A DNA stretch of 64,000 nucleotides from Deferrisomatales bacterium (GCA_033551855.1 JAWSUI010000015.1:1-64000); one strand, 5' to 3'; positions 5,183-34,905 are shown, numbered from the stretch's first letter. Numbers and translations are program-made. Notes: a model not told the origin generated them from the sequence alone.

Positions 5183-5198
5183 CGCCGCGCCCCGCGTC

Positions 5199-15772: not shown

Positions 15773-15866
15773 GGCGACTCCTGGCCTTGCTATTGGTCCC
15801 ATCGGTCCCATGGGTCCCAGGCCACCCACAGGGCCCACGGGACGCATGTGACCCATGAAGAACCCG

Positions 15867-17501: not shown

Positions 17502-17580
17502 CTCGTTGACAGGGGATCGTTGGGACGAACACGACCGATGGGCCCCATGGGACCGCTACGTCCCGTCGGTCCTGTGGGTC

Positions 17581-17991
17581 CTATTCTCGCGGCGCCCCTC
17601 GCCCCACGTTCTCCCGGATGAACCGGATCGTCTCCTCCAGGGGCGTGCCGCCGGGGAAGATCCCCTTCACCCCCAGCTCACGCAGGGCATCGAAATCCCG
17701 GCTGGGGATCACCCCGCCCACGCACACCAGCTTGTCCGCCGCCCCCTTGTCCCGCAGGAGCCCCATGAGCTTGCGGCAGATGGGGAGGTGACCCCCGGTC
17801 ATCACCGAGAGGCCCACCACGTCCACGTCCTCCTGGACCGCCGCCTGGACGATGGACTCGACGCTCTGGTGAAGGCCGGTGTAGACGACCTCCATGCCGG
17901 CCTCCTTGAGCGCGTGGGCTACCACCTTTGCCCCCCGGTCGTGTCCGTCCAGGCCGGGCTTCGCCACCAGAACCTTGATCTTACGGCTCAA
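17581..17991 (-). CDS. Acyl-CoA mutase cobalamin-binding small subunit
   Basis: KPGLDGHDRG (DxHxxG), GLS, GGVIP. Confidence 0.95.
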   Translation of the reverse strand: MSRKIKVLVAKPGLDGHDRGAKVVAHALKEAGMEVVYTGLHQSVESIVQAAVQEDVDVVGLSVMTGGHLPICRKLMGLLRDKGAADKLVCVGGVIPSRDFDALRELGVKGIFPGGTPLEETIRFIRENVGRGAPRE

Positions 17992-18104
17992 CTTGGCCTC
18001 CGTCTTCGTCCCCCGATTCCGGTCTCGGTCACGGCTCCGATACCGATAGCGATCCCGATGCCGATGTCCTCACCGAACACCCGTCACGCGTCGATCGTCG
18101 CCCG

Positions 18105-18398
18105 TCACCCGTGGCGGTACTGGACGCCGCAGCCTCCCCGCGGGTACCTCCAGGAGAGGGCATCCTCCCGGCAGGCGACGAGGCAGGTGCCGCACTCCAG
18201 GCACCCGGCGTACTCCACCACCATCTGCTGGGCCTCGTCGTTCCACTCGTACAGCGCAGCCGGGCACACCCGGATGCAGTACCGGTCGGAGCACCGGTCC
18301 CGGCAGATCTCGGCGTCCACCGCGATGTGGCTCTCGGCGTCGTGCTTGATGGCGTTCTTCGTGAGCTTCGCCGCGACGTCCACGTCCTCGCTCCTCAT
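18105..18398 (-). CDS. fixX: FixX-like ferredoxin
   Basis: CIRVCPAALY, GCLECGTC, WRYPRGG; follows fixC. Confidence 0.88.
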   Translation of the reverse strand: MRSEDVDVAAKLTKNAIKHDAESHIAVDAEICRDRCSDRYCIRVCPAALYEWNDEAQQMVVEYAGCLECGTCLVACREDALSWRYPRGGCGVQYRHG

Positions 18399-18448
18399 CG
18401 TTGCGCCCCTCGGACGGGTCGGACGCGTCCGACCCGTCCGAGGGGCGC

Positions 18449-19735
18449 TCAGATCTTCCGCCAGGGCGCCAGGGCCTTCAGATCCCCCCAGTTCAGCACG
18501 TTCCTCCGCAGAAAACCCCACAACTTCGACGAGACCTTGCCTGGCCGCCCCTTCTCCAGCCGGACCAGGTCGCCCAGGAGCCCGCAGACCTCCCGGGGAT
18601 ACCGGTCGAAGAGGGCTGGGTTCTCCAGCAGCCGCGGCATCCCCCTATAGGCCTCCAGGTACTTCCAGACGAAGCTCTCCCGAAGCCGCCGGGGGTACCC
18701 CGCCAAGCCCGCCTCCGACCAGTCACCCCTCTCCCGGGCCTCGATGACCGCCTCGGCGGCCATCCGGCCGCTGGCGATGGCGAACTCCATCCCGCGTACG
18801 GTGTAGCCCATGTTGAGGGCCAGCCCGGCGGCGTCACCGGCGAGGAGGAGCCCGTCCGCCGCCAGGGGCGGGACCGCATCGAGTCCCCCTTCGGGGATCA
18901 GGTGGGCGGAGTACTCCAGCAGCTCCCCCCCGCGCACCAGGCTCCTCACCCGGGGGTGCGCCTTGAACGCCTCATAGAGCTCCGGGACCTTCATCGAAGC
19001 CCCCTTCTCCATGAGGTCCCCCACCCCGACGACGAGCCCGAGGGAGAGGGAGTCGCGGTTGGTGTAGCAGAACCCCCCGCCCAGGAGCCCCCGGGTGACC
19101 GTGCCGACGAAGAGCTCGGCGCAGCCCTCGCCGGCCTCCAGCTGGAACCGGTCCTCGATGACCCCTGACGGGAGCCCCACCACTTCCTTCACCCCGATCG
19201 CCACGGTCCGCGGGGCGGGGCGGTCCCGCAACCCCCCGGCCTTCCCCACGAAGGAGAGGAGTCCGTCGCAGGCGATCACCGCGTGGGCGGGGATGTCTTC
19301 GCCGTCCACCCGCACGCCGGCCACCGCGCCGCCCTCCCGGAGGAGCTCGGTCACCGGCTTCTGGGGGATGACGTAGGCGCCCTTTGCCCCGACCCGCTCG
19401 GCGAGCCAGCCGTCGAGGCGGGCCCGCAGGACCGTGTAGCTGCGGGGGCGCTCCCCCCCGAGCCCCTCGTCCTGGAAGTCCAGGCGGAGGCTCCGGCCCT
19501 CGTCCAGGAGCGTCCACGCCTCGTGGGTGACCGGCCGTTCCAGGGGGGCCTCCTCCCACCACTCCGGGAACAGGTCCCGCACGCTGTCGACGTAGAGACG
19601 GCCGCCCGTCACGTTCTTGGAACCCGGGGCGTCCCCCCGCTCCAGGACCACGACCTGGAGGCCGGCGTCCGCCAGGGTCTCTGCGGCGGCGAGGCCCGCG
19701 AGACCCGCGCCGACGACGACGGCGTCCATCTTCAC
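18449..19735 (-). CDS. fixC: FixC-like flavoprotein (ETF:quinone oxidoreductase)
   Basis: VVGAGLAG, PGSKNVTGG, EYSAHLIPEGG, GDAAG. Confidence 0.9.
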   Translation of the reverse strand: MKMDAVVVGAGLAGLAAAETLADAGLQVVVLERGDAPGSKNVTGGRLYVDSVRDLFPEWWEEAPLERPVTHEAWTLLDEGRSLRLDFQDEGLGGERPRSYTVLRARLDGWLAERVGAKGAYVIPQKPVTELLREGGAVAGVRVDGEDIPAHAVIACDGLLSFVGKAGGLRDRPAPRTVAIGVKEVVGLPSGVIEDRFQLEAGEGCAELFVGTVTRGLLGGGFCYTNRDSLSLGLVVGVGDLMEKGASMKVPELYEAFKAHPRVRSLVRGGELLEYSAHLIPEGGLDAVPPLAADGLLLAGDAAGLALNMGYTVRGMEFAIASGRMAAEAVIEARERGDWSEAGLAGYPRRLRESFVWKYLEAYRGMPRLLENPALFDRYPREVCGLLGDLVRLEKGRPGKVSSKLWGFLRRNVLNWGDLKALAPWRKI

Positions 19736-19765
19736 GGCCGCGCCTCCCCCGAGGGCCGTGACGCG

Positions 19766-20731
19766 TTACCCTTCACCCGTCACCTTCTTCACCGCAGCCG
19801 TGAGCGCGGGCAGCACCTCGAGCGCGTCCCCCACCACCGCATAGTCGGCGTACTGGAAGATCGGGGCCTTCGGGTCGGTGTTGATCGCCACGACCACCTT
19901 CGCGGTGTCCATGCCCATGGTGTGGTGCACCGCCCCCGACACGCCGGCGACGATGTAGAGGGCGGGGGAGACGGTCTTCCCGGACTTCCCCACCTGGATC
20001 GCGTGGTCGGCCCACCCGGCGTCCACGATCGCGCGGCTCACCCCCACGGCCCCCCCGAGGGCGTCCGCCAGGTCTTCGAGGAGGCGCAGATTCTCCGGCG
20101 CGCGCATCCCGCGGCCCCCGGCCACCACGCGCTGGGCCTCCACGAGGGCCACCCTTCGCGACTCCCGCGGTCGCTCCTCGAGCACCTCCACCCGGCTCGG
20201 GCCTGGGAACGCCGAGACCGCTTCCACCGCGGTCCCGGGCACCGGCGCCGCCCCCCGGTCGAAGCTGTTCGGGCGGAAGGCCGCCAGGCATGTCCGGCCT
20301 CCGCACCGATAGGTGGCATAGGCCTTTCCTCCGAAGACGGGCCGGGTCAGGAGCAGCCCGGCGCCCTCCCGCTGCAGGTCCAGGGCGTTGGTGAAGGCCG
20401 CGGCACCCAGTCGTGCCGCGAGGCGGGGCACCAGGTCCCGGGCCCGCGCCCCCTCGCCGAAGAGGACGATCTCGGGCCCCGCGGCCGCCAGCAGCCCGCC
20501 CAGGACCTCGGTCCAGGCGTCGGAGCAGTAGGGGTCGAGGCCTGCCCCCGCGACCTTCAGCACCCGGTGCGCGGCACCGTCCAGGGCCTGGGCCGCCTCG
20601 CCGTCCGCCCCGAGGACGACCGCCACGACCTCTCCCTCGGGCCCCGCGAGCCTCCTTCCCTGGGACAGGAGCTCCCAGGTGGATGCCCGGTACCCGCCCC
20701 CCTGCCCTTCGCAGACCACCCAGATCGCCAT
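19766..20731 (-). CDS. etfA: Electron transfer flavoprotein alpha subunit
   Basis: VAGGRG, QVGKSGKTV, GVSGAVHH, AINTDPKAPIF. Confidence 0.93.
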   Translation of the reverse strand: MAIWVVCEGQGGGYRASTWELLSQGRRLAGPEGEVVAVVLGADGEAAQALDGAAHRVLKVAGAGLDPYCSDAWTEVLGGLLAAAGPEIVLFGEGARARDLVPRLAARLGAAAFTNALDLQREGAGLLLTRPVFGGKAYATYRCGGRTCLAAFRPNSFDRGAAPVPGTAVEAVSAFPGPSRVEVLEERPRESRRVALVEAQRVVAGGRGMRAPENLRLLEDLADALGGAVGVSRAIVDAGWADHAIQVGKSGKTVSPALYIVAGVSGAVHHTMGMDTAKVVVAINTDPKAPIFQYADYAVVGDALEVLPALTAAVKKVTGEG

Positions 20732-20786
20732 GGGAACCTCCCGCCCGTGACGTGTGACGCCCCCGGGAACCCCTACCGGCCCCCGG

Positions 20787-21551
20787 TCACAACACCCTCG
20801 CCTCTTCCCGGAGCAGCCGCACCAACTCGGCCGCGGCCGCAGCCGGCTCGCCCTCGACCCGTTTCGCCGGCGGGCGCTGGGTCGGTCCCCGGTAGCTCTC
20901 GATCCCCAGGGGGGGCGCCGCCTCGACGCCGAGCTCGGCCAGGGCAGCCTTGGGCACCTGGGCCTTCATGGCCTTCATCAGCCCCATCACCTGGGGCACC
21001 CGGGGCTCGCAGAGCCCCTTCTCCGCGGTCAGCACCGCGGGGAGGGCCACCCGCAGGGTCTCGCTCCCCCGGTCGGTCTCCCGCGACACCTGCACCGCAC
21101 CGTCCCGGACTTCCATGGACGTGACCCCCACGACGCACGCAACCCCCAGGATCTCTGCCGTCATCGGGCCCACCAGGCCGGCCTCGTCGTCGGTGGCCTG
21201 GCGCCCCGCCAGGACCAGATCGAAGCCCTCCCGCCGGCACACGGCCGCCAGGGCCCGGGCTACGGTGAGGGGATCGGCGTCCGAGAGGGCCGGGTCGTCC
21301 ACCAGGAACCCGGCGTCGGCCCCCATGGCCAGGGCCCGCCGGACCGCCTCGGCGCCGGTGCCGGCGCCGGCGGAGACGGCGTAGACCGTCCCCCCCGCCG
21401 CCTGCTTCGCCCGCAGCGCGGCCTCCACGGCGATCTCGTCGAAGAAATTGATGCAGCGCTTCTTCTCGACGTCCACGGATTTCCCGCCCTCGGCCACCTT
21501 GACCAGGGCCTCCAGATCCGGGACCTCCTTGACGAGGACGGCGATCTTCAT
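20787..21551 (-). CDS. etfB: Electron transfer flavoprotein beta subunit
   Basis: VKEVPD, ALAMGAD, GRQATDD. Confidence 0.93.
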   Translation of the reverse strand: MKIAVLVKEVPDLEALVKVAEGGKSVDVEKKRCINFFDEIAVEAALRAKQAAGGTVYAVSAGAGTGAEAVRRALAMGADAGFLVDDPALSDADPLTVARALAAVCRREGFDLVLAGRQATDDEAGLVGPMTAEILGVACVVGVTSMEVRDGAVQVSRETDRGSETLRVALPAVLTAEKGLCEPRVPQVMGLMKAMKAQVPKAALAELGVEAAPPLGIESYRGPTQRPPAKRVEGEPAAAAAELVRLLREEARVL

Positions 21552-21635
21552 GGCATGGCTCCTGAAAGGACGAAAGGGACCGAAAGGACGAACAGGACAA
21601 GGAGTCGCTGTGGTCCCTTTCGTCTTGTACGTCCC

Positions 21636-22784
21636 TTACCGCTCCCGCACGATCTCGCGGCCCACGAAATCCTTGATGATCTCGTGGGTACCGCCCCCGT
21701 ACAGGAGGAAGCGGGCGTCCCGGAAGTACCGCTGGGGCCCGTACTCCGAGGCGAACCCGTTCGCGCCGTAAATGCGGGTGACCTCGTCCACCACCTTCAG
21801 GCACGTCTCCGTGGCGAACATCTTCGCCATGGCGGCCTCCCGCCGGGGGTTCATCCCCTCGCCGATCATCCAGGCCACCCAGTAGACCATCAGGCGGGAG
21901 GCCTCCATCTCGGTGGCCATCTCCGCCAGCTTCGCCCGGATGAGCTGGTACTCGCCGATCGCCTTCCCAAACGCCCGCCGCTTCCGGGCGTACTCCAGGC
22001 CGTCGGCGAACGCCGTGCGGGCCATGCCGAGGGCCATGGCCCCCGTCATGCAGCGAACCTCGTTGAGGATCTCTCCCAGGTAGACCACCCCCTTGCCCTG
22101 CTCCTCCCCCAGCAGGTGCTCGTCGGGCACGAAGACGTCGTCCAGCACCAGCTCGCCGCAGGCCGGGCCCCGGGCCCCCAGCTTGTGGAGGAGCTGCCCG
22201 GGCTGGAACCCCGAAGTTCCCTTCTCCACCAGGAAGAAGTTCAGGGCCTTCATCCCCTGGGAGGGATCCGTCGTCGCCAGCACCGTCGCGAAGTCCGCTG
22301 TGGGGCCGTTGGTGATCCAGTTCTTCGTGCCGGTGAGCCGCCACCCCCCGTCGACCTTCGCAGCCAGGGTGCGGGTGGCCGCGAGGTCCGAGCCGGACTG
22401 GTCCTCCGTGAAGCACATGGTGGCGATCTTCTCCCCGCGCAGGGCCGGCAGGAGACACCGCTCCCGGATTCCAGGGCTCCCGAACCGGTACAGGAAGTGG
22501 GTGCCCATCAGCATGTTCATGATCACGGCTTGGGCGAACCCCACGGAACCCCGGGAGAGCTCCTCGTAGAAGAGCATGCAGGTCACCGGGTCGGCGTTCA
22601 TCCCCCCGAGCTCCTCCGGGTAGCGCAACCCCAGGTACCCGAGCTCGGCAAACTCGCGCCACAGGGAGGCGGGAATCTCGTCCGCCTCGTCGATGTGCTC
22701 CACGTGGGGAAGGACCAGCCGGTCCACCGTGTCGGCCACAGCCCTCCGGAAGAACTCCTGCTCCTCGGTCAGTCGAAAATCCAT
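21636..22784 (-). CDS. Acyl-CoA dehydrogenase family protein (candidate IaaF-like, decarboxylating)
   Basis: FTEDQSGSD, GTKNWITN, RRAFGKAI, YFRDA; canonical catalytic Glu position reads YGGGTHEI. Confidence 0.9.
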   Translation of the reverse strand: MDFRLTEEQEFFRRAVADTVDRLVLPHVEHIDEADEIPASLWREFAELGYLGLRYPEELGGMNADPVTCMLFYEELSRGSVGFAQAVIMNMLMGTHFLYRFGSPGIRERCLLPALRGEKIATMCFTEDQSGSDLAATRTLAAKVDGGWRLTGTKNWITNGPTADFATVLATTDPSQGMKALNFFLVEKGTSGFQPGQLLHKLGARGPACGELVLDDVFVPDEHLLGEEQGKGVVYLGEILNEVRCMTGAMALGMARTAFADGLEYARKRRAFGKAIGEYQLIRAKLAEMATEMEASRLMVYWVAWMIGEGMNPRREAAMAKMFATETCLKVVDEVTRIYGANGFASEYGPQRYFRDARFLLYGGGTHEIIKDFVGREIVRER

Positions 22785-22924
22785 GTGTCTCGTCCGCTGT
22801 CAGTTGTTTATTGTCCGTGGCCGGTTGTCAGTGGTCCGTTGTCCGTTGTGGGAAAGACCCGGCAGCGACCCGGCGCGGTCCGAGCGGCCTCCCCGGGCGA
22901 CGGGCAGCGGACAATGGACACACT

Positions 22925-24118
22925 TCAAATGACCCCCTCAGCCTTCAACCCCGCGAGCTCGTCGGCGCCGATTCCCAGCTCTCCGCCGTAGACGGCCCGG
23001 TTGTGCTCCGCCGTCCGAGGGGGGAACGGCAGCGTCCGGCCCTGCTCCCGCAGGTATGGGGTCATGAAGGGTGGGGGCGCCAGGGTCACCCGGAAGCCGG
23101 TGCGGGGGTCGACGGCGGCTAGGAGCTTCGGCTTCACTGCCGGGTCCTCGCACACCTCCAGGACGTTCTGCACCTTGGAGACGGGGATGAGCGCCTGGCG
23201 GAAGGTCGCGAGGATCTCCTCGGTGGTGTACTTCCCGGTGGCCTCCGCGATCCGCCGGTTCAGCCGCTCCACGTCCGCGATGCGGCCCGCGTTGGTCGCA
23301 TAGGCGGGGTCGTCGAGCCCCTCGAAGCCGGGGAGCGCCAGGAGTCGCTTCCACTGCACGTCGTTCCCCAAGGCGACGTACACGTACCCGTCGCGGGTCG
23401 GATAGACGCTCACCGGGGCAAAGAATTCGTGGGTCGCGCCCCGCCGGGTCATCACCTTGTCGAAGCTCTTGGCCATGGTCACGGGCTGGGTGAGCCAGGA
23501 CACCGTGGAATCGATCATGGCCAGGTCGATCCGGCTCCCCTCCCCCGTCACCGCACGCCGGTACAGCGCCCGCATCAGGAGGCCGTACGCGTGCTCGCTG
23601 GTGCCCATGTCGGGCAGTGGGATTCCCACCACCTGGGGTATTCCACCGGCTTCCCCCGTCAGGTCCATCAGTCCTCCCCGCGCCTGGAGCACGGGGTCGT
23701 AGGCCGCCTCGTTCGAGTCGGGGCCGAACCCCGTCAACCCGAGCCAGATGAGGTCCGGCTTCACCTCCCGCAGCACCTCGTAGTCGATCCCCAGGGGGCC
23801 GTAGTTCTTCGGGAGCTGGTTCGTGGCGAAGATGTCCACCCCGAGCCTGACGATGAGGTCCTTGAGGATCGCCTGGCCCCTGGGGTCCTTGAGGTTGAGG
23901 GTCAGGGCCTCCTTCCCGGCGTTGATGGAGAGGAAGTAGCTCCCCATGTCCTCCTCGCCGGGGGCGAAGGGCCGGCCCACCTTGCGGTTGGGGTCGCCCA
24001 GCACCGGGTGCTCCAGGCGGATGACCCGGACCCCGTCCTGGGCGAGCCGGTAGGTGAGGTACGGGAGGACCGTGGCCTGTTCGAGGCTCAAGACGGTGAG
24101 CTTCCGGAATACGTCCAT
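22925..24118 (-). CDS. Class III CoA-transferase (CaiB/BaiF family)
   Basis: INAGKEALTLNLK, LTGFG, YDPVLQA, LPDMG with catalytic Asp. Confidence 0.9.
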   Translation of the reverse strand: MDVFRKLTVLSLEQATVLPYLTYRLAQDGVRVIRLEHPVLGDPNRKVGRPFAPGEEDMGSYFLSINAGKEALTLNLKDPRGQAILKDLIVRLGVDIFATNQLPKNYGPLGIDYEVLREVKPDLIWLGLTGFGPDSNEAAYDPVLQARGGLMDLTGEAGGIPQVVGIPLPDMGTSEHAYGLLMRALYRRAVTGEGSRIDLAMIDSTVSWLTQPVTMAKSFDKVMTRRGATHEFFAPVSVYPTRDGYVYVALGNDVQWKRLLALPGFEGLDDPAYATNAGRIADVERLNRRIAEATGKYTTEEILATFRQALIPVSKVQNVLEVCEDPAVKPKLLAAVDPRTGFRVTLAPPPFMTPYLREQGRTLPFPPRTAEHNRAVYGGELGIGADELAGLKAEGVI

Positions 24119-24150
24119 CGGGACCTCTTCTCCGGATGTGTTTGTTTTTG

Positions 24151-24172
24151 ACTGTGTATTGTTCTACTCAGT
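24151..24172. promoter_or_regulatory. Putative operator palindrome in the leader of the minus-strand operon
   Basis: ACTGTGTA-TTGTTC-TACTCAGT (ACTGnGTA-N6-TACnCAGT) in an AT-rich stretch. Confidence 0.5.
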
Positions 24173-24204
24173 ATAAAAATCCGTTTGTCACATTTCGAAG
24201 TCGC

Positions 24205-24233
24205 AGTCTAGAGCCCTCTTTGGGCTCTGTCAA
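24205..24233 (-). promoter_or_regulatory. Sigma70 promoter for the minus-strand catabolic operon
   Basis: TTGACA-17 bp-TAGACT on the minus strand; spacer is the palindrome AGAGCCC-N5-GGGCTCT. Confidence 0.75.
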
Positions 24234-24293
24234 CCGGGGGCGTTTACGATTCCTAGCGCGACCCTTCACATCGTCGGAAATCCTTTTGTAGCG

Positions 24294-24322
24294 TTGACAG
24301 AAGCGAGACCCTCTGCTACGGT
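24294..24322 (+). promoter_or_regulatory. Sigma70 promoter for the hcr-like operon
   Basis: TTGACA-17 bp-TACGGT with extended -10 TGn. Confidence 0.65.
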
Positions 24323-24453
24323 CCCTCCCTGCAGCGGGTCGGCTTCGGGTGCGGTCCGCACACAAACAGTGTTTGGGCAACGCGCAACCGGCGTTGCGGC
24401 CCATTCGGCGCAGACCGGGCGCCCCGCCGCCGCTGGGCATCCGGGAGGAGACG

Positions 24454-25461
24454 ATGCTCCGACTTCCTCCGCTCGACGTCCTCCAGCCCGAAGCCCTCGA
24501 CGGCGCCCTGGCCGCCCTCGGCGCGCCCGCGCCCCCACGCGTCCTGGCGGGGGGCACCGACCTCCTGGTCTCCCTCAAACAAGGACACACTCCCGGAAAC
24601 GCGGGGGTCCTGCTCAGCATCGCCCGCCTCCCCCTGCGGGGAATCTCCCCGGGAGAGGCCCGGTGGGAGCTGGGGGCGGGGACCTCGCTCGCCGAGGTGA
24701 CCCGCTGGGCTGCCCCGGGGGCGCTCGCCGTCGTTCCCCGGGCCGCAGCCTTGGTCGCCGCACCTCCACTCCGGACCCGGGCCACGGTGGGGGGCAACCT
24801 GTGCCTCGACACCCGCTGCGCGTTCTACAACCAGTCCGCCTTCTGGCGCAGCGGGAGGCCCCCGTGCCACAAGGCGGGGGGAGAAGTCTGCCACGCGGTG
24901 CCCGGGAGCCCACGGTGCCACGCCTGCCACCAGGCAGACCTCCCGCCGGTGTTGATCGCCCTGGGGGCCGAAGTCGAGGCGAGGGGCCCCGCCGGGGCAA
25001 GGGTCTTTCCCCTGGAGGAGCTCTACTCGGGGGACGGCCGGGAGCCCCTGCGCCTGGCGGCCTCCGAGCTCCTGACCCGCGTCCTGCTCCCCCTCCCCCC
25101 TCCGGCCGCCGGGGCGGGGTACGAGAAGCTCCGCCCCCGGAAAGGCCTGGACTTCCCGGCCGCTTCCGCGGCGGTCTACCTGGAGCGGTCCGAGGTCGGG
25201 CTGTGCCGGGAGGCCCGGATCGCGGTGGGGGCCGTGGGGTCCGGCCCGCTGCGGGTGCCGGAAGCCGAGAGGTGCCTGGTGGGCTCCGACCTCGGGGCCT
25301 CGGCCCTCGAGGCGGCGGCCGCCGAGGCCCGGCGGGCCGCGCGGCCGGTCAAGAACGCGGACTTTACGCCGGCCTACCGGCGGCAAGTGGTGGGGACCCT
25401 GGTCGCGCGCGCTGCCCGTACCGCGTGGGAGGCGGCCCAGAGAGGGAGGTCCGAGTCGTGA
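24454..25461 (+). CDS. 4-hydroxybenzoyl-CoA reductase beta-like FAD/[4Fe-4S] subunit
   Basis: AGGTDL, ATVGGNLCLDTRC..YNQS.FWR...CHK.GG.VC...C Cys insert typical of HcrB/HbaD. Confidence 0.88.
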   Translation: MLRLPPLDVLQPEALDGALAALGAPAPPRVLAGGTDLLVSLKQGHTPGNAGVLLSIARLPLRGISPGEARWELGAGTSLAEVTRWAAPGALAVVPRAAALVAAPPLRTRATVGGNLCLDTRCAFYNQSAFWRSGRPPCHKAGGEVCHAVPGSPRCHACHQADLPPVLIALGAEVEARGPAGARVFPLEELYSGDGREPLRLAASELLTRVLLPLPPPAAGAGYEKLRPRKGLDFPAASAAVYLERSEVGLCREARIAVGAVGSGPLRVPEAERCLVGSDLGASALEAAAAEARRAARPVKNADFTPAYRRQVVGTLVARAARTAWEAAQRGRSES

Positions 25462-25967
25462 GCGGGGCACAGAAGGCCATCCTGGAGCTCAGGGTGAACG
25501 GCAACCGGCACACGGTCCTCGCGGCCCCAGGGCGCACCCTGCTCGAGGTCCTGCGGGAGGACCTGGGCCTGACCGGCGCCAAGGAGGGGTGCGGCGTGGG
25601 GGCCTGCGGGACGTGCACGGTGCTGCTGGACGGGGCCCCGGTACGCTCCTGTCTGACCCTGGCCTGTGAAGCCCAGGGCAGTGAGATCCTGACGATCGAA
25701 GGGTTGGCGGAGACCTGGGCAGACCGGGCCGAGGGGGAGCTCCACCCCGTCCAGGAGGCCTTCGTGGAGGGCCACGGGATTCAGTGCGGCTTCTGCACGC
25801 CCGGCATGATCCTCACGGCCAAGGCGCTGCTGGACGAGAACCCGGACCCCACCGAGGCCGAGGTGCGGGCCGCCCTGTCCGGGCAGGTGTGCCGCTGCAC
25901 GGGGTACGCCAAGATCGTGGAGTCGGTCCTGGGCGCCGCCCGCCGCCTCCGGGAGGTGCAGCCGTGA
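25458..25967 (+). CDS. HcrC-like 2Fe-2S subunit
   Basis: GCGVGACGTC, QCGFCTPG, CRCTGY; GTG start overlaps the upstream stop. Confidence 0.92.
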   Translation: MSGAQKAILELRVNGNRHTVLAAPGRTLLEVLREDLGLTGAKEGCGVGACGTCTVLLDGAPVRSCLTLACEAQGSEILTIEGLAETWADRAEGELHPVQEAFVEGHGIQCGFCTPGMILTAKALLDENPDPTEAEVRAALSGQVCRCTGYAKIVESVLGAARRLREVQP

Positions 25968-28261
25968 AGCCCGGCCGAGTGATCGGTACCAGCATCCCGC
26001 GGCGGGACGCGCGCCTGAAGGCCACGGGCGAGGCCCGCTACGCGGCGGACGTGAGCCTGCCCTTCATGCTCCACGCCGCGGTCCTGCGCAGCCCCCTTCC
26101 CCACGCCCGGATCGTGCGGCTCGATGCCGCCCCGGCCCTCGCACTGCCCGGGGTCAAGGCGGTCGTGACCGCCGCCGACGCCTCCGGCGTCAAGTGGGGC
26201 GTCTTCCGCTACACGCGGGATCAGGAATTCCTGGCACGGGACGTGGTGCGCTACATCGGCGAGGAGGTCGCGGCGGTGGCGGCCGAGACCGAGGAACTCG
26301 CCCGGGAGGCGGTGTCCCGGATCGTCGTGGAGTACGAGCCGCTGCCCGCGGTCTTCGACCCCCTTTCCGCCATGGCGCCCGGCGCACCGCGGGTGCACGC
26401 GCACGCGGAGCGCAACGTGAACATCCACGTGCCCATACACGTGGGCGACGTGGACGCGGCCCTGGGCGAGTGCGCGCACGTGCACACCGAGCGCACCGAG
26501 AGCGAGGAGGAGAGCTACTTCATGACCGAGCCCTACGCGGTGGTCGCCCACTGCGACCGCCAGGGCACGGTCGAGGTCTGGATGCCCAACGCAAGCCCCC
26601 ACACCAAGGCCAAGGGGCTGGCGAACGCCCTCGAGCTCCCCGTCTCCAAGGTCCACGTGCGCCACGTCACCGTAGGGGGTGCCTTCGGGGGGCGCAGCGA
26701 CATGTTCCCGGGGGAGTACATCGCCGCGCTCCTCTCCCGCAAGACCCGCCGGCCGGTCAAGCTCGTCTACACCCGGGAAGAGAACTCCATCGCCGTGCGC
26801 CAGGGACACTCCATGGTGGTGGAGAGCACCTTCGGGTTCCTGCAGGACGGCACCCTCCACGCCGCCGACGTCACCGCGCACATGGACGGCGGCGCCTACT
26901 CCTCCACCGGCCCCATCGCCACGAGCGTCCCCTTCCTGTGCTTCGAGCAGACCTACCGGGTCCCGAACGTCCGGTACAACGGGTACCGGGTCTACACCAA
27001 CAAGCCCATCCGGGGGATGATCCGCACCCACGGCCGCGCCTGGGCGTGCAACGTGGACATGCAGCTCGATCTCGCGGCCCGGGCCCTGGGCCTGGACCCC
27101 ATCGAGATCCGGCGCCGGAACGCCCTCCGGGGCGGCGAGCACACGCCCACCCGCAGCTTCATCCCGGTGATGGCGAGCCGCGAGACCATCGACGCCGTCG
27201 CCGAGGCGAGCCGCTTCCGGGAGAAGTGGGGCAAGCTCCCCCCCTGGCACGGCATCGGGGTGGGCTGCGTGAGCGTGATGAGCGGCTTCCCCATGGGCAT
27301 CCGGGGCGGCTCCGCGGCCATGATCAAGTTCGACGAGGACGGCGGCGCCACCCTGATCTCGGGGGTGGTGGACAACGGCCAGGGCAACGAGGGTGTGGTG
27401 CTGCAGATCGCGGCCGAGGCCCTGGGGATCCCCGTGGACCAGATCCAGCTCACCGCCTCGGACACCGAGGTCACCCCCATCGACCAGGGGGCCTACTCCC
27501 AGGCCACCACCTTGGTGAGCGGCAACGCCGTGCGCCTCGCCTGCGAGGACGCCCGGCGACAGATCCTGGAGATCGCGGCCGAGGCCATGGAGGCCAGCGC
27601 CGCGGATCTGGACATCGAGGACGGGCGCATCTTCGTGCGGGGCTCCCCGTCGCGGGCCATGCCCGTGGCCAAGGCCATCCGCACAGGCCTGCTCCAGGGC
27701 AAGGCGGTGCTCGGCCAGGGCAGCTTCGGGCCCAACGTGGACCAGACCCGGGAGTGGATCACCAACCCAAAGGGCCAGCTCGCGGCGGCCTTCAGCTACG
27801 GCAGCGCCGTGGTGGAAGTGGCGGTGGACCCGGAGACCGGGCTGGTGGACGTCCTGGACGTGTGGGTGGCCCACGACTGCGGGCGTGCCATCAACCCCGC
27901 GGAGGTGGAAGGCCAAATGGAAGCGGGGGTCGCCATGGGGGGCCACGGCGGCATCCTGCTGGAGGCCTGCAAGTGGCACCAGGGCGCCAACCTGAACACC
28001 GGCTTCCTGGACTACAAGGTGCCCCTTGCCCCGGACATGCCCCCCATCCACAACTTCATCATCGAGTCCGAGGACCCGGTCGGCCCCTTCGGCGCCAAGG
28101 AGGGGGGGCTCTCGATCTCCATGTGCACGGCCCAGGCGTACACCAACGCCATCGCCGACGCCATCGGGACCTACCTCCGGGAGTTCCCCCACACCCCGGA
28201 CCGGATCCTGGACGCGATCGAGAAAAAGGGAGGGGATGCAGGTTGGACGGAAAGCACATGA
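25964..28261 (+). CDS. HcrA-like molybdopterin-binding subunit
   Basis: GGAFGGR, DNGQG, HDCGRAINP, GPFGAKEGGL; in operon with HcrB/C-like genes. Confidence 0.88.
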   Translation: MKPGRVIGTSIPRRDARLKATGEARYAADVSLPFMLHAAVLRSPLPHARIVRLDAAPALALPGVKAVVTAADASGVKWGVFRYTRDQEFLARDVVRYIGEEVAAVAAETEELAREAVSRIVVEYEPLPAVFDPLSAMAPGAPRVHAHAERNVNIHVPIHVGDVDAALGECAHVHTERTESEEESYFMTEPYAVVAHCDRQGTVEVWMPNASPHTKAKGLANALELPVSKVHVRHVTVGGAFGGRSDMFPGEYIAALLSRKTRRPVKLVYTREENSIAVRQGHSMVVESTFGFLQDGTLHAADVTAHMDGGAYSSTGPIATSVPFLCFEQTYRVPNVRYNGYRVYTNKPIRGMIRTHGRAWACNVDMQLDLAARALGLDPIEIRRRNALRGGEHTPTRSFIPVMASRETIDAVAEASRFREKWGKLPPWHGIGVGCVSVMSGFPMGIRGGSAAMIKFDEDGGATLISGVVDNGQGNEGVVLQIAAEALGIPVDQIQLTASDTEVTPIDQGAYSQATTLVSGNAVRLACEDARRQILEIAAEAMEASAADLDIEDGRIFVRGSPSRAMPVAKAIRTGLLQGKAVLGQGSFGPNVDQTREWITNPKGQLAAAFSYGSAVVEVAVDPETGLVDVLDVWVAHDCGRAINPAEVEGQMEAGVAMGGHGGILLEACKWHQGANLNTGFLDYKVPLAPDMPPIHNFIIESEDPVGPFGAKEGGLSISMCTAQAYTNAIADAIGTYLREFPHTPDRILDAIEKKGGDAGWTEST

Positions 28262-28382: not shown

Positions 28383-28817
28383 ATGAAAGCCAAGGCCATC
28401 GACCACATCTGCTTCGTCGTGCGCGACCTCGACGAAGCCGTCGCGCGCTACCGCGACACCCTGGGGATGGAGCCCGACGGGTACTACACGGCTCCCTCGG
28501 AGAGCATCCGGGTGGCCCGGTACTACCTGGAGAACGTCGCCCTCGAGCTCATGGAGCCCACCCGGCCGGACAGCGAGGTGGGCCGCTTCCTCGAGAGGCG
28601 CGGGGAGGGCTTCTTCCTCATCTCCTACCGGGTGGACGATGTGTCCGAGGGACTTGCGGAGCTCGCCGAAAAGGGGCATCGGACCATCGACCGGGTGCCC
28701 CGGGAGCTCATGGGCAACCGGTACGCCTTCCTTGCCCCGCCCCCCCAGATGTACGGCGTGCTCACCGAGATCCTCGACGGGGAGTTCGACCGGGGCTACG
28801 ATGAGGGCGGCGGATGA
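28383..28817 (+). CDS. VOC family protein, methylmalonyl-CoA epimerase-like
   Basis: IDHICFVVRDLDEA, LELMEP, FLERRGEG, GVLTE. Confidence 0.82.
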   Translation: MKAKAIDHICFVVRDLDEAVARYRDTLGMEPDGYYTAPSESIRVARYYLENVALELMEPTRPDSEVGRFLERRGEGFFLISYRVDDVSEGLAELAEKGHRTIDRVPRELMGNRYAFLAPPPQMYGVLTEILDGEFDRGYDEGGG

Positions 28818-28868: not shown

Positions 28869-29792
28869 GTGAACCCTGACCCGACCTTCTCTTCCGTCGA
28901 CGCCATCATCCGGGCGTTCCGGGAGCACCACTACGTGGCGGACCCCGCGGTCGCCACGATCCTCTACCTCAGCCGGGCGCTGCAGAAGCCCCTGTTCCTG
29001 GAGGGTGCGCCCGGCGTGGGGAAGACCGAGCTGGCCGTGGTCCTGGCGCGGGCCATGGACACCGAGCTCATCCGCCTGCAGTGCTACGAAGGGCTGGACG
29101 CCTCCATGGCCCTCTACGAGTGGAACTACCCCCGCCAGATCCTGGAGATCAAGCTCCAGGAGGTGTGCGGGGACCGGGATCGGCTGGCGCGGACGATCTT
29201 CAGCGAGGAGTTCCTGATCAAGCGGCCCCTGCTCCAGGCCATCCAGCACCCCGGTCCACAGCCCGCGGTGCTGCTCATCGACGAGCTGGACCGGGCCGAC
29301 GAGGAGTTCGAGGCCTTCCTGCTGGAGCTCCTGGCGGACTACCAGATCACCGTCCCGGAGCTCGGCACCCTGCGCGCCGTGGTGAAGCCGATGGTCATCG
29401 TCACCTCCAACCGCACTCGGGACGTCCACGACGCCCTCAAGCGCCGATGCCTGTACCACTGGATCGACTACCCGGACTTCGACAAGGAGTACGCCATCGT
29501 CCGGAGCCGCCTGCCGGGCGTGGAGGAGCGGCTGGCCGCCCAGGTGTGCCGCTTCATGGAGCGCATCCGGACCGAGGACTTCCTCAAGCGGCCCGGTGTC
29601 GCGGAGACCCTCGACTGGGCCGCCGCCCTCCTCGCGCTCAACCACCACACCCTGGACGCCCCGGTGGTGGAGGCCACCCTGGGATGCATCTTCAAGAACC
29701 AGCAGGACATCCAGGTCTTCCGGGAGCAGATCTGGGGGGACGAGGGCCGCCGCCGGGAGTACCTGCAGGACGTGAAGGAGAACGTGTGTTGA
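28869..29792 (+). CDS. MoxR-family AAA+ ATPase (CoxD-like)
   Basis: EGAPGVGKTE, IRLQCYEGLD, LIDELDR, ALKRRCLY. Confidence 0.92.
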   Translation: MNPDPTFSSVDAIIRAFREHHYVADPAVATILYLSRALQKPLFLEGAPGVGKTELAVVLARAMDTELIRLQCYEGLDASMALYEWNYPRQILEIKLQEVCGDRDRLARTIFSEEFLIKRPLLQAIQHPGPQPAVLLIDELDRADEEFEAFLLELLADYQITVPELGTLRAVVKPMVIVTSNRTRDVHDALKRRCLYHWIDYPDFDKEYAIVRSRLPGVEERLAAQVCRFMERIRTEDFLKRPGVAETLDWAAALLALNHHTLDAPVVEATLGCIFKNQQDIQVFREQIWGDEGRRREYLQDVKENVC

Positions 29793-29832: not shown

Positions 29833-30615
29833 GTGACGCCGGCCGGGGACGGGCCCCGGCCCCGCATCCGGGAGCTCCTGGAGGCCGGCGAAGCCTTCTG
29901 CCTGGCCACCGTCGTCGCCTCCCGCGACCCGGCGGTGCGGGTGGGGGCGAGAGCCGTCGTCCGAGGGGACGGGACCGCCGAGGGGGAGCTCGGCGACGAG
30001 GGGGTGGGCCGGGAAGTGCACCGCCTCGCGCGGGAGGCACTGGGGCGCCGGCGCAGGGGCCTCGTGGAGCCGCGCCCCGGTCTGCAGGTCTTCCTGGACG
30101 TGATGGCACCGGAGGCCGAGCTCCTGGTGTGCGGGGCGGGCCACATCGCCGTGCCGCTGGCCGCATTCGCCCGGCAGCTCGGTTTCGCGGTGACCGTACT
30201 GGACGACCGGGCCGACTTCGCGCGCCCGGACCGGTTTCCGGGCTGCGAGGTCGTGGCCGAGGACTTCGTGGGCGCCCTCCGGCGGCTGCCCCTGGGGCCC
30301 GACACCTATGTGGTGGTCATCACCCGGGGGCACGAGCACGACGCCGAGTGCCTGGCGGAGGTCCTCCCGAAGCCGACCGCCTACGTGGGCCTCATCGGGA
30401 GCCGGCGGCGGGTGGCCTTCGTCCTGGAGATGCTCGGCCGCGAGGGCGTCCCCGCGGAGCGGCTGACCGAGGTCTTCACTCCCATCGGGGTTCCCCTGGG
30501 GGCCGAATCGCCGGAGGAGATCGCCCTGTCGATCGCCTCCGAGCTGGTCTGCGTGCGCCGCAAGGGGCCGGAACAGGCCCGCGCCCTGCGGGACGCCGCA
30601 GGGGGAAGCCGATGA
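29833..30615 (+). CDS. XdhC/CoxF family molybdenum cofactor insertion protein
   Basis: CGAGHIA, DDRADFA, TRGHEHD, YVGLIGSRRR, PEEIALSI. Confidence 0.9.
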   Translation: MTPAGDGPRPRIRELLEAGEAFCLATVVASRDPAVRVGARAVVRGDGTAEGELGDEGVGREVHRLAREALGRRRRGLVEPRPGLQVFLDVMAPEAELLVCGAGHIAVPLAAFARQLGFAVTVLDDRADFARPDRFPGCEVVAEDFVGALRRLPLGPDTYVVVITRGHEHDAECLAEVLPKPTAYVGLIGSRRRVAFVLEMLGREGVPAERLTEVFTPIGVPLGAESPEEIALSIASELVCVRRKGPEQARALRDAAGGSR

Positions 30616-31157: not shown

Positions 31158-32312
31158 ATGTCCGACCTCTCCACGCCCCCGCGCCCCGGCCGCCCGGAGT
31201 CCCCCGACGGACCGTTGGGCATGGCGGGGAACATCGTTGCCTTCTCCCGGCTCCTCAAGGACGCCGGGCTCCCCACCCACCCCCAGGCGGTGGTCGATGC
31301 CTGCCGATCCGTGGCCCTGCTGGACCTCGGCGACCGCCGGCAGGTCTACTGGGCGCTCCGGGGCAACCTGGTCACCGACCGGCAGCGCTACGAGGCCTTC
31401 GACCGCCTCTACCGCCTGTTCTGGGAAGAGGGGGTCCGCCGGCTCCCCCGCCGGCAGCCGGCCCCGCTGGGCCGGATCCCCGTCTTCGCCCCCGTCCCCC
31501 CCGGCGGGGAAGGGGTGGGGCGGACCGCCCCCGACGCCTCCGGCGGCGCCAGCCCCGACGAGCTCTTGATCCGCAAGGACCTGCGCACCCTCGCCCCGGA
31601 AGAGGAACCGCGGCTCCGGGAGATCCTCCAGTCCCTCCTCGCCAAGCTCGCCACCCGGCCGGGCCGCAGGTACCGGCCCACCTTCCGGGGCCGCGGCCTG
31701 GAGCTCCGCCGCACCTTCCGGCGCAACGCCGCCCTGGGCGGCGAGCTCGTCCGGCTCGTCCGCCGGGCGAGAAGGGTCCGCCGCCTTCGGGTGGTGTTCC
31801 TCGGGGACGTCTCCGGGTCCATGGACGCCTACAGCCGCTTCTTCCTCCTGGTGGCCCACGCCCTCGGGCGGCAGGAACCCGGGGTCGAGGTCTACGCGTT
31901 CTCCACGCGGCTGTTCCGGCTCACCGAGTTCGTGCGGGACCGGGACGCCAGCCGCGCCCTGGAGCGCCTGGCGCAGCAGACCCTGGGCTGGTCCGGGGGG
32001 ACGAGGATCGGCCAGTGCCTCGGCGAGCTGCACCGGGCGCTGGCCCGCCGCCCCCGCCTCCGGGACACCGTGGTGGTCATCCTGAGCGACGGCTGGGACC
32101 GGGGGGACCCCGGCCTGGTGCGGCGGGAGATGGCTCGCCTCAAGGGGGCCGTCTCACGGATCTACTGGCTCAACCCCCTGAAGGGCGACCCCGATTACCG
32201 TCCCCTGTGCCAGGGCATGGCCGCCGCCCTGCCCTACGTGGACGGCTTCTACCCGGCCCACAACGTGGAATCCCTGGCCCGCTTCACCCGGCAGCTCGTC
32301 CGCGTGCGGTGA
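31158..32312 (+). CDS. vWA-domain protein (CoxE-like)
   Basis: DVSGSM MIDAS, FSTRL, WSGGTRIG, SDGWD, WLNP; start may be 31221. Confidence 0.9.
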   Translation: MSDLSTPPRPGRPESPDGPLGMAGNIVAFSRLLKDAGLPTHPQAVVDACRSVALLDLGDRRQVYWALRGNLVTDRQRYEAFDRLYRLFWEEGVRRLPRRQPAPLGRIPVFAPVPPGGEGVGRTAPDASGGASPDELLIRKDLRTLAPEEEPRLREILQSLLAKLATRPGRRYRPTFRGRGLELRRTFRRNAALGGELVRLVRRARRVRRLRVVFLGDVSGSMDAYSRFFLLVAHALGRQEPGVEVYAFSTRLFRLTEFVRDRDASRALERLAQQTLGWSGGTRIGQCLGELHRALARRPRLRDTVVVILSDGWDRGDPGLVRREMARLKGAVSRIYWLNPLKGDPDYRPLCQGMAAALPYVDGFYPAHNVESLARFTRQLVRVR

Positions 32313-32393: not shown

Positions 32394-33758
32394 ATGGACC
32401 AGACGAAGTACCTCCTCACCGAGAAGGACATCCCGCGGCAGTGGTACAACATCGCCGCCGACATGCCCAACCCGATGAAGCCGCCGCTGCACCCCGGCAC
32501 CGGACAGCCCGTGGGCCCCGACGCCCTCGCACCGCTCTTCCCCATGAGCCTCATCGAGCAGGAGGTGAGCTCTCAGCGGTGGGTGGACATCCCCTCGGAG
32601 ATCCTCGACATCCTCAGCCTGTGGCGCCCGACCCCGCTCTACCGCGCCCACCGTCTGGAGAAGGCCCTGGGGACCCCCGCCAAGATCTACTACAAGTACG
32701 AGGGGACGAGCCCGGCGGGCAGCCACAAGCCCAACACCAGCGTGGCGCAGGCCTACTACAACATGAAGGAGGGCGTGAAGCGCATCGCCACCGAGACCGG
32801 GGCCGGCCAGTGGGGCAGCGCGCTCTCCCTTGCCTGCAACTTCTTCGGCATCGAGGCGAAGGTGTACATGGTCAAGATCTCCTACGAGCAGAAGCCTTAC
32901 CGGCGCATGCTCATGGAGACCTGGGGCGGCAAGGTCATCCCGAGCCCGTCCAACGAGACGGCGGCGGGCCGGAAGATCCTGGCCGAGAACCCGAATTCCA
33001 CGGGCTCCCTGGGCATCGCCATCTCCGAGGCGGTCGAGGACGCCGCCGGCCGCGACGACACCAAGTACGCCCTGGGGTCGGTGCTCAACCACGTCCTGCT
33101 GCACCAGACCGTGGTCGGCCAGGAGGCCCAGAAACAGATGGAGATGGCCGGCGACTACCCCGACGTGATCCTGGGGTGCTGCGGCGGGGGCTCGAACTTC
33201 GCCGGGCTCGCCTTCCCCTTCCTGCGGGACAAGATCGCCGGGAAGGCGATCGACGTGATCGGGTGCGAGCCCACGGCGTGCCCCACCCTCACCAAGGGGC
33301 ACTTCCACTACGACTTCGGCGACACGGTGGGGATGACCCCCCTGCTGCCCATGCACACCCTCGGCCACACCTTCGTCCCGGCCGGCATCCACGCGGGGGG
33401 GCTCCGGTACCATGGGATGGCGCCCCTCGTGAGCCAGCTGCTCAAGGACGACCTGATCCGGGCCATGGCCTTCCACCAGGTGGAGTGCTTCGACGCCGGA
33501 GTGCTCTTCGCCCGGAGCGAGGGCATCGTGCCGGCCCCCGAGTCGAACCACGCGATCCGGGGCGCCGTGGTGGAGGCCCTCAAGGCCAAGGAGGAGGGAA
33601 AGGAAAAGACGATCCTGTTCCTGCTCTCGGGCCACGGCCACTTCGACATGTCGGCGTATGAGGCCTATTTCGCCAAGACCCTCGAGGAGTACGAGCTCCC
33701 CGGGGCGGAGCTCGACAAGGCCTGGGACGCGATCAAGGGGCTGCCCTCGGCCGCCTGA
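32394..33758 (+). CDS. trpB: TrpB2 tryptophan synthase beta-like PLP enzyme (indole salvage type)
   Basis: GSHKPN PLP Lys, [31 protein letters not shown]; no trpA adjacent. Confidence 0.93.
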
Positions 33759-33825: not shown

Positions 33826-34905
33826 CTACGCCTCCCGGAACCAACCCCGGCTCAGCCGCTGGGTGCGCTCCGCCAGGGCCTCGAGCTTCGCTCTCGCCCC
33901 GCCCGAATCCAGGCCCTGCAAGGCCATCCGGACCCCCTCCGGCAGGCCCTTGGCGACCCCGGCCGCGTAGAGGGCCGCCCCGGCGTTCAGGACCACGATG
34001 TCCCGCCGGGGACCCTGCTCTCCTCCCAGCACGGCCCGAACGATCGCCGCGTTCTCCCGGGCGTCGCCCCCCGCGATGTCCTCCGGCGACGCGCGCCCCA
34101 GGCCGAGCTCCTCCGGCGTCACCGCGTACTCCCGGATCGCCCCCTCCCGCACCTCGGCCACCTCGGTCGCCCCGCACACGGTGATCTCGTCCAGCCCGTC
34201 CTCCCCGCGCACCACCAGGGCCCGCTCCGCCCCCAGGGCGAGGAGCGCCTCGGCCAGCACCCGCGGGGACTCCCTGGCCCCCACCCCCACGAAGTGGCAG
34301 CGGGCCCCGGCCGGGTTTGCCAGGGGGCCGAGGAGGTTGAAGATCGTCCGAAGCCCCAGCTCCCGCCGCGGGCCGACCACGTGCCGGATGGTGGAGTGGA
34401 AGAGGGGCTCGTAGAAGAAGCCGATCCCGACGGTCTCGAGGCAGTCCTCCACGGCCGACGGGGTGAGGTCCGGCTCCACCCCCAGGGCCGCCAGGACGTC
34501 CGCACTCCCGCACAGGGGCGCCACCGCCCGCAGCCCGTGCCGCACCACCCGGACCCCGCAGGCAGCCACCGCGAAGGCGGTGGCGGTGGAGACGTTGAAG
34601 GTCCGGGTGCCGGAGCTCCCCGAGGCCATGAAGGCGGCGATCGTCTCTTGGTCCACGTTGATCTCGTCGCGGTCGATCGCCACCAGGGGCGCCCCGGCCC
34701 GGATCGAGGGCCCCAGGGAGCGCAGCACCCGGGCCGCCCCGGCGAGCTCCGAGCCGGTCACCCCCTTCACCCGCAGGGCCATGAGGAAGGCCCCGATCTG
34801 GGCGGCAGTCGCCTCCCCCCGGGTCACCTCGGTCATGACCGCGATCATCTCACCCTCGGACAGGTCCTCGCGCCCCGCCAGTCTCGCCAGCGCCTCCCGG
34901 ATCAT
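33826..34905 (-). CDS. trpD: Anthranilate phosphoribosyltransferase-like protein with degenerate substrate motifs
   Basis: AQIGAFLMALRVKG, TFNVST, GSADVL, RTIFNLLGPL, DGLDE; GTGGD and KHGN are altered. Confidence 0.82.
   Translation of the reverse strand: MIREALARLAGREDLSEGEMIAVMTEVTRGEATAAQIGAFLMALRVKGVTGSELAGAARVLRSLGPSIRAGAPLVAIDRDEINVDQETIAAFMASGSSGTRTFNVSTATAFAVAACGVRVVRHGLRAVAPLCGSADVLAALGVEPDLTPSAVEDCLETVGIGFFYEPLFHSTIRHVVGPRRELGLRTIFNLLGPLANPAGARCHFVGVGARESPRVLAEALLALGAERALVVRGEDGLDEITVCGATEVAEVREGAIREYAVTPEELGLGRASPEDIAGGDARENAAIVRAVLGGEQGPRRDIVVLNAGAALYAAGVAKGLPEGVRMALQGLDSGGARAKLEALAERTQRLSRGWFREA

Follow-up and report, generated by a model that had tools for sequence, protein, structure and literature searches.

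The Hcr-like gene trio

We have analyzed a stretch of 64,000 nt, one strand, from a Deferrisomatales bacterium (GCA_033551855.1 JAWSUI010000015.1:1-64000), called here the window, and specifically its positions 24,454-28,261, which code for a three-subunit molybdenum (Mo) enzyme resembling 4-hydroxybenzoyl-coenzyme A (CoA) reductase (4-HBCR). Of the candidates so far for the enzyme that removes the amino group of 2-aminobenzoyl-CoA, these three genes, the Hcr-like trio, are the best; the anaerobic indoleacetate (iaa) pathway leads to this compound according to PMC9613470. The genome is divided in 132 contigs, with a completeness of 100% as judged from marker genes. As the G+C content of the window is about 70%, genes were chosen by their third-position G+C and then checked against family models.

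The genes of the trio are translationally coupled, overlapping and located on the plus strand, in the order flavin adenine dinucleotide (FAD) subunit, iron-sulfur small subunit and Mo subunit (Table 1). An earlier reading of this DNA, made from the sequence alone (the sequence-only reading), had placed the feature at 24454..28261, and these limits agree with the start of the FAD gene and the end of the Mo gene. A ribosome-binding site, GGGAGGAG, precedes the ATG at 24454. We looked for a terminator-like site between the Mo subunit gene and the VOC-fold protein gene that follows, and none was seen. The spacer upstream contains two sigma-70-like sites, both on the minus strand. It separates the trio from a divergent operon of iaa-type genes that starts with a family III CoA-transferase; the divergent arrangement is the one that the sequence-only reading had described.

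Relationship with 4-hydroxybenzoyl-CoA reductase

All three subunits gave full-length matches to models of the xanthine oxidase/CO dehydrogenase family (hammerhead and two molybdopterin-binding domains, 2x[2Fe-2S] and FAD). The Mo subunit matched 42 family members in the PDB, the fold matches having TM-scores of 0.81-0.94. In NCBIfam, the Mo and FAD subunits were matched best by the models of 4-HBCR subunits, and the nearest solved structures were chains of the Thauera aromatica 4-HBCR (1RM6_A, E 7.7e-113, for the Mo subunit and 1RM6_B, E 4.3e-46, for the FAD subunit). All three were found, however, under the curated 4-HBCR equivalog cut-offs: 595.9 bits versus 994.55 for the Mo subunit (TIGR03194), 232.7 versus 404.55 for the FAD subunit (TIGR03195) and 173.9 versus 257.8 for the small subunit (gamma model, TIGR03193). 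An AlphaFold2 model of the Mo subunit, built from a 48-row alignment (mean pLDDT 92, pTM 0.91), had as top PDB matches chains A and D of 1RM6, with a TM-score of 0.94 and a root-mean-square deviation of 2.0 Å.

The FAD subunit aligned to 1RM6_B unbroken across the HcrB-specific [4Fe-4S] insert. The four Cys that the sequence-only reading had noticed are indeed there (Cys122, Cys138, Cys146 and Cys155, codons within 24817-24918), and all four are invariant in the 62 FAD subunits that we found encoded adjoining relatives of the Mo subunit (62/62). In 4-HBCR this extra cluster is thought to feed low-potential electrons towards the Mo. Taken together with HcrCAB of T. aromatica (PDB 1RM6/1SB3), the trio has the same three-subunit architecture, fold, Cys-rich insert of the FAD subunit and GAKE start of the active-site motif, but identity is about 33-40%, HcrA residues Gln214, Arg524 and Glu726 correspond to Ala210, Ala514 and Leu716, and the genes, in the order FAD-FeS-Mo, belong to an iaa-type cluster and are not found among phenol or hydroxybenzoate genes. 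Automatic annotation (source names) labels these proteins and the true 4-hydroxybenzoyl-CoA reductases alike.

A molybdenum site without its Gln and Glu

The motif GPFGAKEGGLSI of the Mo subunit pairs gap-free with the motif GPFGAKEASEGM of HcrA (1RM6 chain A), and likewise with GIKGMGES of quinoline oxidoreductase (1T3Q), so that Leu716 (codon 28109-28111) stands at the position of Glu726 in T. aromatica HcrA. The replacement of the conserved Glu by Leu, a central claim of the sequence-only reading, is thus borne out, as is the motif GAKGIGE that it gave for the other Mo subunit of the window. The nearest, Hcr-type relatives have GAKExxEG and not the GAKGxGE named there; the first Glu of this motif (Glu713) is retained and the canonical one alone is lost. 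A misaligned Glu was ruled out by the gap-free rows against 1RM6 and 1T3Q and by a local model confidence of about 90. Besides, Ala210 (codon 26591-26593) replaces the conserved Mo-site Gln of the (S/T)TQxP motif (HcrA Gln214), and Ala514 (codon 27503-27505) the Arg of the SR motif (HcrA Arg524). The usual roles of such Mo-site residues, as in xanthine oxidase, CO dehydrogenase and the aldehyde oxidoreductase of D. gigas, are to contact the oxo and hydroxo ligands of the Mo and to act as general base.

The residues of 41 relatives lacking the Glu were compared with those of 36 other family members and of 19 Hcr-type sequences that have the Glu. Of the Hcr-type rows, 95% have retained the Gln of (S/T)TQxP, as have 75% of the others, and Glu was the majority residue at its position in these two groups. 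The Glu-lacking group has invariant residues of its own: the stretch GVKWGVFRYT at 75-84, Glu328, Met352, Arg447, Asn475, Trp671 and a REW insertion at 596-598. The pattern was followed in an alignment of 187 full-length members of this group (P0001-P0120 of at least 700 aa plus the proteins derived from the related loci described below, two sets that may overlap). Position 716 was Met in 121 and Leu in 66 and never Glu; position 210 was Ala in 187/187; Arg was found at position 514 in 0/187; and Glu328, Met352 and Arg447 were invariant (187/187). The family-conserved second-sphere Gln and Glu of the Mo site are therefore absent from the window protein and from every one of the 187 relatives. 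A sequencing error or a lone mutant was ruled out, since the substitution is found throughout, also in all of the 70 loci, out of 79 related ones, that gave a readable motif (46 with Leu, 24 with Met and 0 with Glu).

A separate clade

Among 1.84 billion cluster representatives searched with the Mo subunit, the three nearest showed identities of 52, 48 and 43%, and the Glu position was occupied in them by Leu, Met and Ile, respectively. Elsewhere in that alignment Glu dominates (132 of 164 aligned rows, the rows with another residue including 15 clade rows that were added, among them the window protein). A FastTree phylogeny built on 96 rows placed the 41 that have a hydrophobic residue at the Glu position in one clade with a support of 99, nested among sequences with GAKExxEG, and a quick IQ-TREE analysis of 44 selected rows recovered the same split with an SH-aLRT of 100. 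Two unrelated representatives of the xanthine oxidase family outside the clade (P0153 and P0173) also have Met at the Glu position, which points to more than one loss of the Glu within the family.

The same genome has three Hcr-type Mo subunits, the window gene and two more on another contig (C29). One of the latter passes the TIGR03194 cut-off (1164 bits versus 994.55) and keeps the Glu (motif GVKEIGEG); the other scores 730 bits and keeps it as well (GAKEAGEG). The FAD subunit encoded beside the passing equivalog (both in the C29 region 15103-20337) was matched best by XdhB (221 bits) and only partly by the 4-HBCR beta model, and it seems to have no [4Fe-4S] insert. The second paralog does have the insert and adjoins an acyl-CoA ligase.

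In the trees, the HcrA equivalog of this genome falls in a neighbouring clade, apart from the window protein. This bears on one interpretation of the trio, an ordinary 4-hydroxybenzoyl-CoA reductase, as its top family and structure matches would suggest. The canonical enzyme was ruled out by scores far under the equivalog cut-offs together with the separate HcrA equivalog, and the different clade, the loss of both Gln and Glu and the iaa-type context speak against it too, making this identity extremely improbable.

The iaa-type operon of the window

The minus strand between 1111 and 24118 contains, at family level, genes for a CoA-transferase, a B12 mutase, hydantoinase-like A and B proteins, PaaK-like ligase and a Mo hydroxylase (Table 1). 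Like the iaa operon of Aromatoleum aromaticum and A. evansii, it has IaaL-, IaaGH- and IaaF-type, hydantoinase-like, PaaK-like and Mo hydroxylase-type genes. The dehydrogenase reads YGGGTHEI near its C-terminus, and GGG in place of the YEG of most acyl-CoA dehydrogenases is the hallmark of the IaaF subclass according to PMC8360864. Compared with the iaa genes listed in PMC9613470 and PMC8360864, the window adds the Hcr-like trio, genes for the two subunits of an electron transfer flavoprotein (EtfAB) with a FixC-like protein, and the VOC epimerase-like gene. An open reading frame at 11821-13554 was rejected as hydantoinase B for having no Pfam match, the gene being in another frame. A protein search for IaaC orthology with the second Mo subunit gave no named Aromatoleum protein among its best 120 matches.

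Table 1. Genes and other features of the window around the Hcr-like trio
Feature	Position	Strand	Remarks
FAD subunit, HcrB-like, 335 aa	24454-25461	+	ATG start
2x[2Fe-2S] small subunit, 169 aa	25458-25967	+	Two [2Fe-2S] motifs; GTG start overlapping the stop of the FAD gene
Molybdopterin subunit, HcrA-like, 765 aa	25964-28261	+	GTG start overlapping the stop of the small-subunit gene
Divergent spacer, 335 bases	24119-24453	.	Between the minus-strand iaa-type operon and the plus-strand Hcr-like operon
IaaL-like family III CoA-transferase	22925-24118	-	First gene of the iaa-type operon
IaaF-like acyl-CoA dehydrogenase	21636-22784	-	GGG in place of YEG
EtfB and EtfA	19766-21551	-	Core of the iaa-type operon
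FixC-like oxidoreductase	18449-19735	-	Core of the iaa-type operon
B12 mutase, small and large subunits (IaaGH-like)	15867-17991	-	Core of the iaa-type operon
Hydantoinase-like A	13667-15856	-	Core of the iaa-type operon (12075-24118)
Hydantoinase-like B	12075-13649	-	Core of the iaa-type operon
Two PaaK-like CoA ligases	8988-11775	-	Distal part of the iaa-type operon (1111-11775)
Hydroxylase-type Mo enzyme, FAD subunit	8069-8929	-	No Cys insert
Hydroxylase-type Mo enzyme, FeS subunit	7507-7998	-	Distal part of the iaa-type operon
Hydroxylase-type Mo enzyme, Mo subunit	5199-7508	-	GAKGIGE; Gln and Glu present
YqeB	4367-5182	-	343 bits versus cut-off of 220; directly after the hydroxylase-type Mo enzyme
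TRAP transporter	1111-4107	-	End of the iaa-type operon
VOC-fold protein, methylmalonyl-CoA epimerase-like	28383-28817	+	Directly downstream of the trio; homolog in 37 of 79 related loci
MoxR-type AAA ATPase	28869-29792	+	Probable maturation gene
XdhC-family factor	29833-30615	+	Probable maturation gene
CoxE-like VWA protein	31158-32312	+	Probable maturation gene

The second Mo enzyme of the operon may be selenium-dependent, as it adjoins YqeB, a marker of selenium-dependent molybdenum hydroxylases. Its presence matters for the idea that the trio itself catalyses an oxidative hydroxylation in the iaa pathway, for instance of indoleacetyl-CoA. The trio belongs to the same superfamily, and the known iaa pathway reportedly needs a Mo hydroxylase. 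Nevertheless, the Glu missing from 187/187 relatives is the base used by the hydroxylases of this family, the FAD subunit has the reductase-type insert, and the same operons already encode the separate hydroxylase-type enzyme, with Gln and Glu and without insert, so that we consider a hydroxylase role very unlikely.

The EtfAB and FixC-like proteins encoded beside the IaaF-like dehydrogenase (18449-21551) are a candidate route to the quinone pool. In PMC8360864, the natural electron acceptor of IaaF is given as unknown, and strict anaerobes are said to have an extra electron transfer flavoprotein in their iaa operons. This statement on the acceptor, and the loss of both the Gln and the Glu, residues conserved in most of the aligned family, would fit a trio that is a redox module without substrate chemistry at the Mo site. 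It might, for example, take up or pass on electrons from the IaaF-like dehydrogenase, or be a paralog that has lost catalysis. We find this improbable: the cofactor-binding motifs are retained, EtfAB and the FixC-like protein are already encoded beside the dehydrogenase, and the new invariant features (Glu328, Arg447, Met352, GVKWGVFRYT and the REW insert) extend across two phyla, the many newly invariant positions indicating a selected and specific active site.

Related loci and genomes

A scan of one genome per species provided 79 loci encoding relatives with 49-93% identity. We searched them for iaa-type genes by tblastn with the window proteins, within the sequence retrieved per locus, and found at least one in 51 of the 79; a CoA-transferase, mutase or dehydrogenase was present in 28. 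Flanks of 8 kb or more on both sides were available for 24 loci, and 20 of these had at least one iaa-type gene. The trio was located inside or beside iaa-type operons in several orders of two phyla, and in Anaerolineales, Syntrophorhabdales, Desulfarculales and Desulfobacteraceae it appeared co-directional and flanked by iaa-type genes, in many cases immediately behind the hydroxylase-type Mo enzyme. One Anaerolineales locus (L026) shows the co-directional series hydroxylase-type Mo enzyme, CoA-transferase, two dehydrogenases, Hcr-like trio, VOC and mutase. Two other loci (L053 and L060) have mutase, hydantoinase-like, ligase, hydroxylase-type Mo enzyme and Hcr-like trio; L039 has TRAP, ligase, hydroxylase-type Mo enzyme and Hcr-like trio; and L079 has Hcr-like, VOC, mutase and hydantoinase-like genes. 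The clade has a cultured carrier, Dethiosulfatarculus sandiegensis (L036).

Different surroundings were also seen. One clade member is found beside a fused phosphoenolpyruvate (PEP)-utilising enzyme with a HAD hydrolase (L045:2169-7666), and others (L040 and L059) beside NifB-like, ParA/NUBPL-like, NifU-like and HdrD-like genes. The neighbours in these three loci could be substrate-activating or electron-donating partners.

We have also examined 401 genomes from the phylum of the window, taking as Hcr-like orthologs matches of at least 50% identity (there is a clear gap, the next matches having at most 44%) and as IaaL-like transferases those with E 1e-100 or better. An Hcr-like ortholog was found in at least 74 genomes, a lower bound as fragmentary orthologs may be missed, and the transferase in 81. 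Among the matches listed, both genes were found in 67 genomes, the Hcr-like gene only in seven, the transferase only in 14 and neither in 313. In another 66 genomes the Hcr-family matches were all weaker ones, and 12 of these genomes have the transferase. The association with iaa genes expected from the sequence-only reading is thus seen across genomes, 67 of the 74 carriers, among the matches listed, having also the IaaL-like gene.

Class I benzoyl-CoA reductase has a reported tolerance of 2-aminobenzoyl-CoA. No B subunit of this enzyme (BcrB) was found above the cut-off in the genome of the window, nor in any iaa-bearing genome of the 401 sampled, and the six genomes where the cut-off was passed carry neither iaa nor Hcr-like genes (0/6). 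Since no BcrB passes the cut-off in these iaa-bearing organisms, they cannot rely on this tolerance. Genes of the aldehyde:ferredoxin oxidoreductase family were considered as BamB: there are six matches in the genome, and the five that were scanned gave only generic aldehyde:ferredoxin oxidoreductase, below the cut-off.

Proposed reductive deamination of 2-aminobenzoyl-CoA

We lean, with modest confidence, towards the trio being a ferredoxin-driven reductive deaminase that converts 2-aminobenzoyl-CoA into benzoyl-CoA, a reaction drawn from the gene context and from chemistry. It would be a heterotrimeric Mo enzyme of the 4-HBCR type working as a reductase. Low-potential electrons, probably from reduced ferredoxin, would be accepted by the extra [4Fe-4S] cluster of the FAD subunit and pass via FAD and the two [2Fe-2S] clusters to the molybdopterin site, a direction of flow that we infer by analogy with 4-HBCR. 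There they would reduce 2-aminobenzoyl-CoA, presumably the compound in which the adjacent iaa-type indoleacetate pathway ends; the amino group at the ortho position would leave as ammonia, and the benzoyl-CoA formed would be taken up by the benzoyl-CoA pathway of the organism. The same radical-type chemistry is plausible because the ortho amino group, like the para hydroxyl, is conjugated with the thioester, and the loss of Gln and Glu would adapt the Mo site to the ortho amine as leaving group. As a speculation, the loss of these two residues and the gain of Glu328 and Arg447 may reflect the nitrogen leaving group and a turned ring.

To our knowledge, 4-HBCR represents the one known type of enzyme that removes a ring substituent of benzoyl-CoA by reduction. 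Deamination is the most economical reading because an enzyme of the type that removes ring substituents is present as a dedicated paralog, encoded in iaa operons beside a separate hydroxylase-type enzyme. The sequence-only reading had proposed the removal of the ring amino group from 2-aminobenzoyl-CoA or a related aryl-CoA: the 4-HBCR branch, the insert, a paralog distinct from HcrA and the linkage with iaa genes favor it, while the specific reaction comes only from context and chemistry.

The iaa steps to 2-aminocinnamoyl-CoA, a beta-oxidation thereafter and iaa operons in strict anaerobes are described in PMC8360864. An activity that deaminates aminobenzoyl-CoA esters reductively has been on record for decades (cited by PMC4539516 and PMC7500099). 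The first of these, a review, cites a 2-aminobenzoyl-CoA reductase activity for Azoarcus (Aromatoleum) evansii and names no gene for it. This deaminating activity is the same reaction proposed here, but it is found in a denitrifier and is without an assigned gene in the literature searched, and the enzyme there may be a different one. Desulfatiglans anilini has Hcr-like proteins whose detection was restricted to cells growing with aniline or 4-aminobenzoate (PMC7500099). The putative 4-aminobenzoyl-CoA reductase of this bacterium (Hcr-like 03875/03876) resembles our trio in the proposed reductive removal of an aryl amino group from a CoA ester, but the group is para and not ortho, the genes belong to an aniline cluster, and the function is putative (PMC7500099). 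Our literature search found no assignment of a gene to the reductive deamination of aminobenzoyl-CoA, although earlier mention is possible in key iaa papers outside the search, and no paper joining 2-aminobenzoyl-CoA with 4-hydroxybenzoyl-CoA reductase; novelty in print is therefore not claimed.

The D. anilini proteins, linked to 4-aminobenzoate in PMC7500099, also point to an aryl-CoA reductase with another substrate. This could be 4-aminobenzoyl-CoA, as in the aniline route, an amino-aryl compound formed earlier in the pathway (2-aminocinnamoyl-CoA, for instance) or a hydroxylated analogue. The evidence from family, fold and insert applies to such an enzyme as much as to the deaminase, some clade members are outside iaa-type clusters, and the one in L045 is beside a PEP-utilising enzyme of the kind that activates phenol or aniline. 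However, the link with iaa-type genes is strong and specific of the clade, and we judge a different substrate unlikely.

Several points weigh against deamination of 2-aminobenzoyl-CoA as the function of the trio. No iaa-type gene was found within about 10 kb in four of the 24 wide-flank loci (L040, L045, L059 and L068), where the genes nearby code for Fe-S and NifB-like maturation proteins, an HdrD-like protein, a PEP-utilising enzyme and an aminotransferase, or are unrelated. In the genome survey, 14 of the 81 IaaL-like-bearing genomes were without ortholog among the matches listed and seven of the 74 carriers without IaaL-like gene, most of these seven being 73-94% complete; besides, related genomes are not independent, and the P value of a Fisher test overstates the association between the Hcr-like and IaaL-like genes. 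The loss of the Arg at 514 is not specific of the clade, as two Glu-bearing relatives and the sister sequence are also without it, and the loss of Gln and Glu in an enzyme that removes an amine has no explanation from first principles. The substrate of the iaa-type operons in strict anaerobes is itself inferred. The evidence here comes from family, site and context, and none of it bears directly on the substrate or on the direction of the reaction.

A broader claim, possible in our view if somewhat short of probable, is that the clade represents the first xanthine oxidase-family enzyme to cleave an aryl C-N bond reductively, with a Mo site devoid of Gln and Glu, and the long-missing gene for 2-aminobenzoyl-CoA deamination in strict anaerobes of at least two phyla. 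If true, the clade would complete the anaerobic breakdown of indoleacetate and perhaps also of tryptophan, indole and anthranilate. Its diagnostic signature (Ala210, Met/Leu716, Glu328, Arg447 and the four-Cys insert) makes the question directly testable, together with the cultured carrier. The clade separates the true 4-hydroxybenzoyl-CoA reductases from look-alikes that share their automatic annotation, and it is a natural experiment on the function of the Mo-site Gln and Glu in the xanthine oxidase family.

Other genes downstream of the trio

The VOC-fold protein encoded directly after the trio is probably an epimerase for a malonyl-CoA intermediate. The MoxR-, XdhC- and CoxE-like genes that come next belong to the helper types (MoxR-type, XdhC-family and VWA) that mature the active site of CO dehydrogenase, and they follow the trio in close, Deferrisomatales-type loci only. 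After these maturation genes there is a TrpB2-type tryptophan synthase beta gene (32394-33758, plus strand), which recurs after the cluster in eight close loci. A trpD gene (33826-34947, minus strand) and a pair of pyruvate/indolepyruvate:ferredoxin oxidoreductase-like genes (43315-46285, minus strand) are found nearby.

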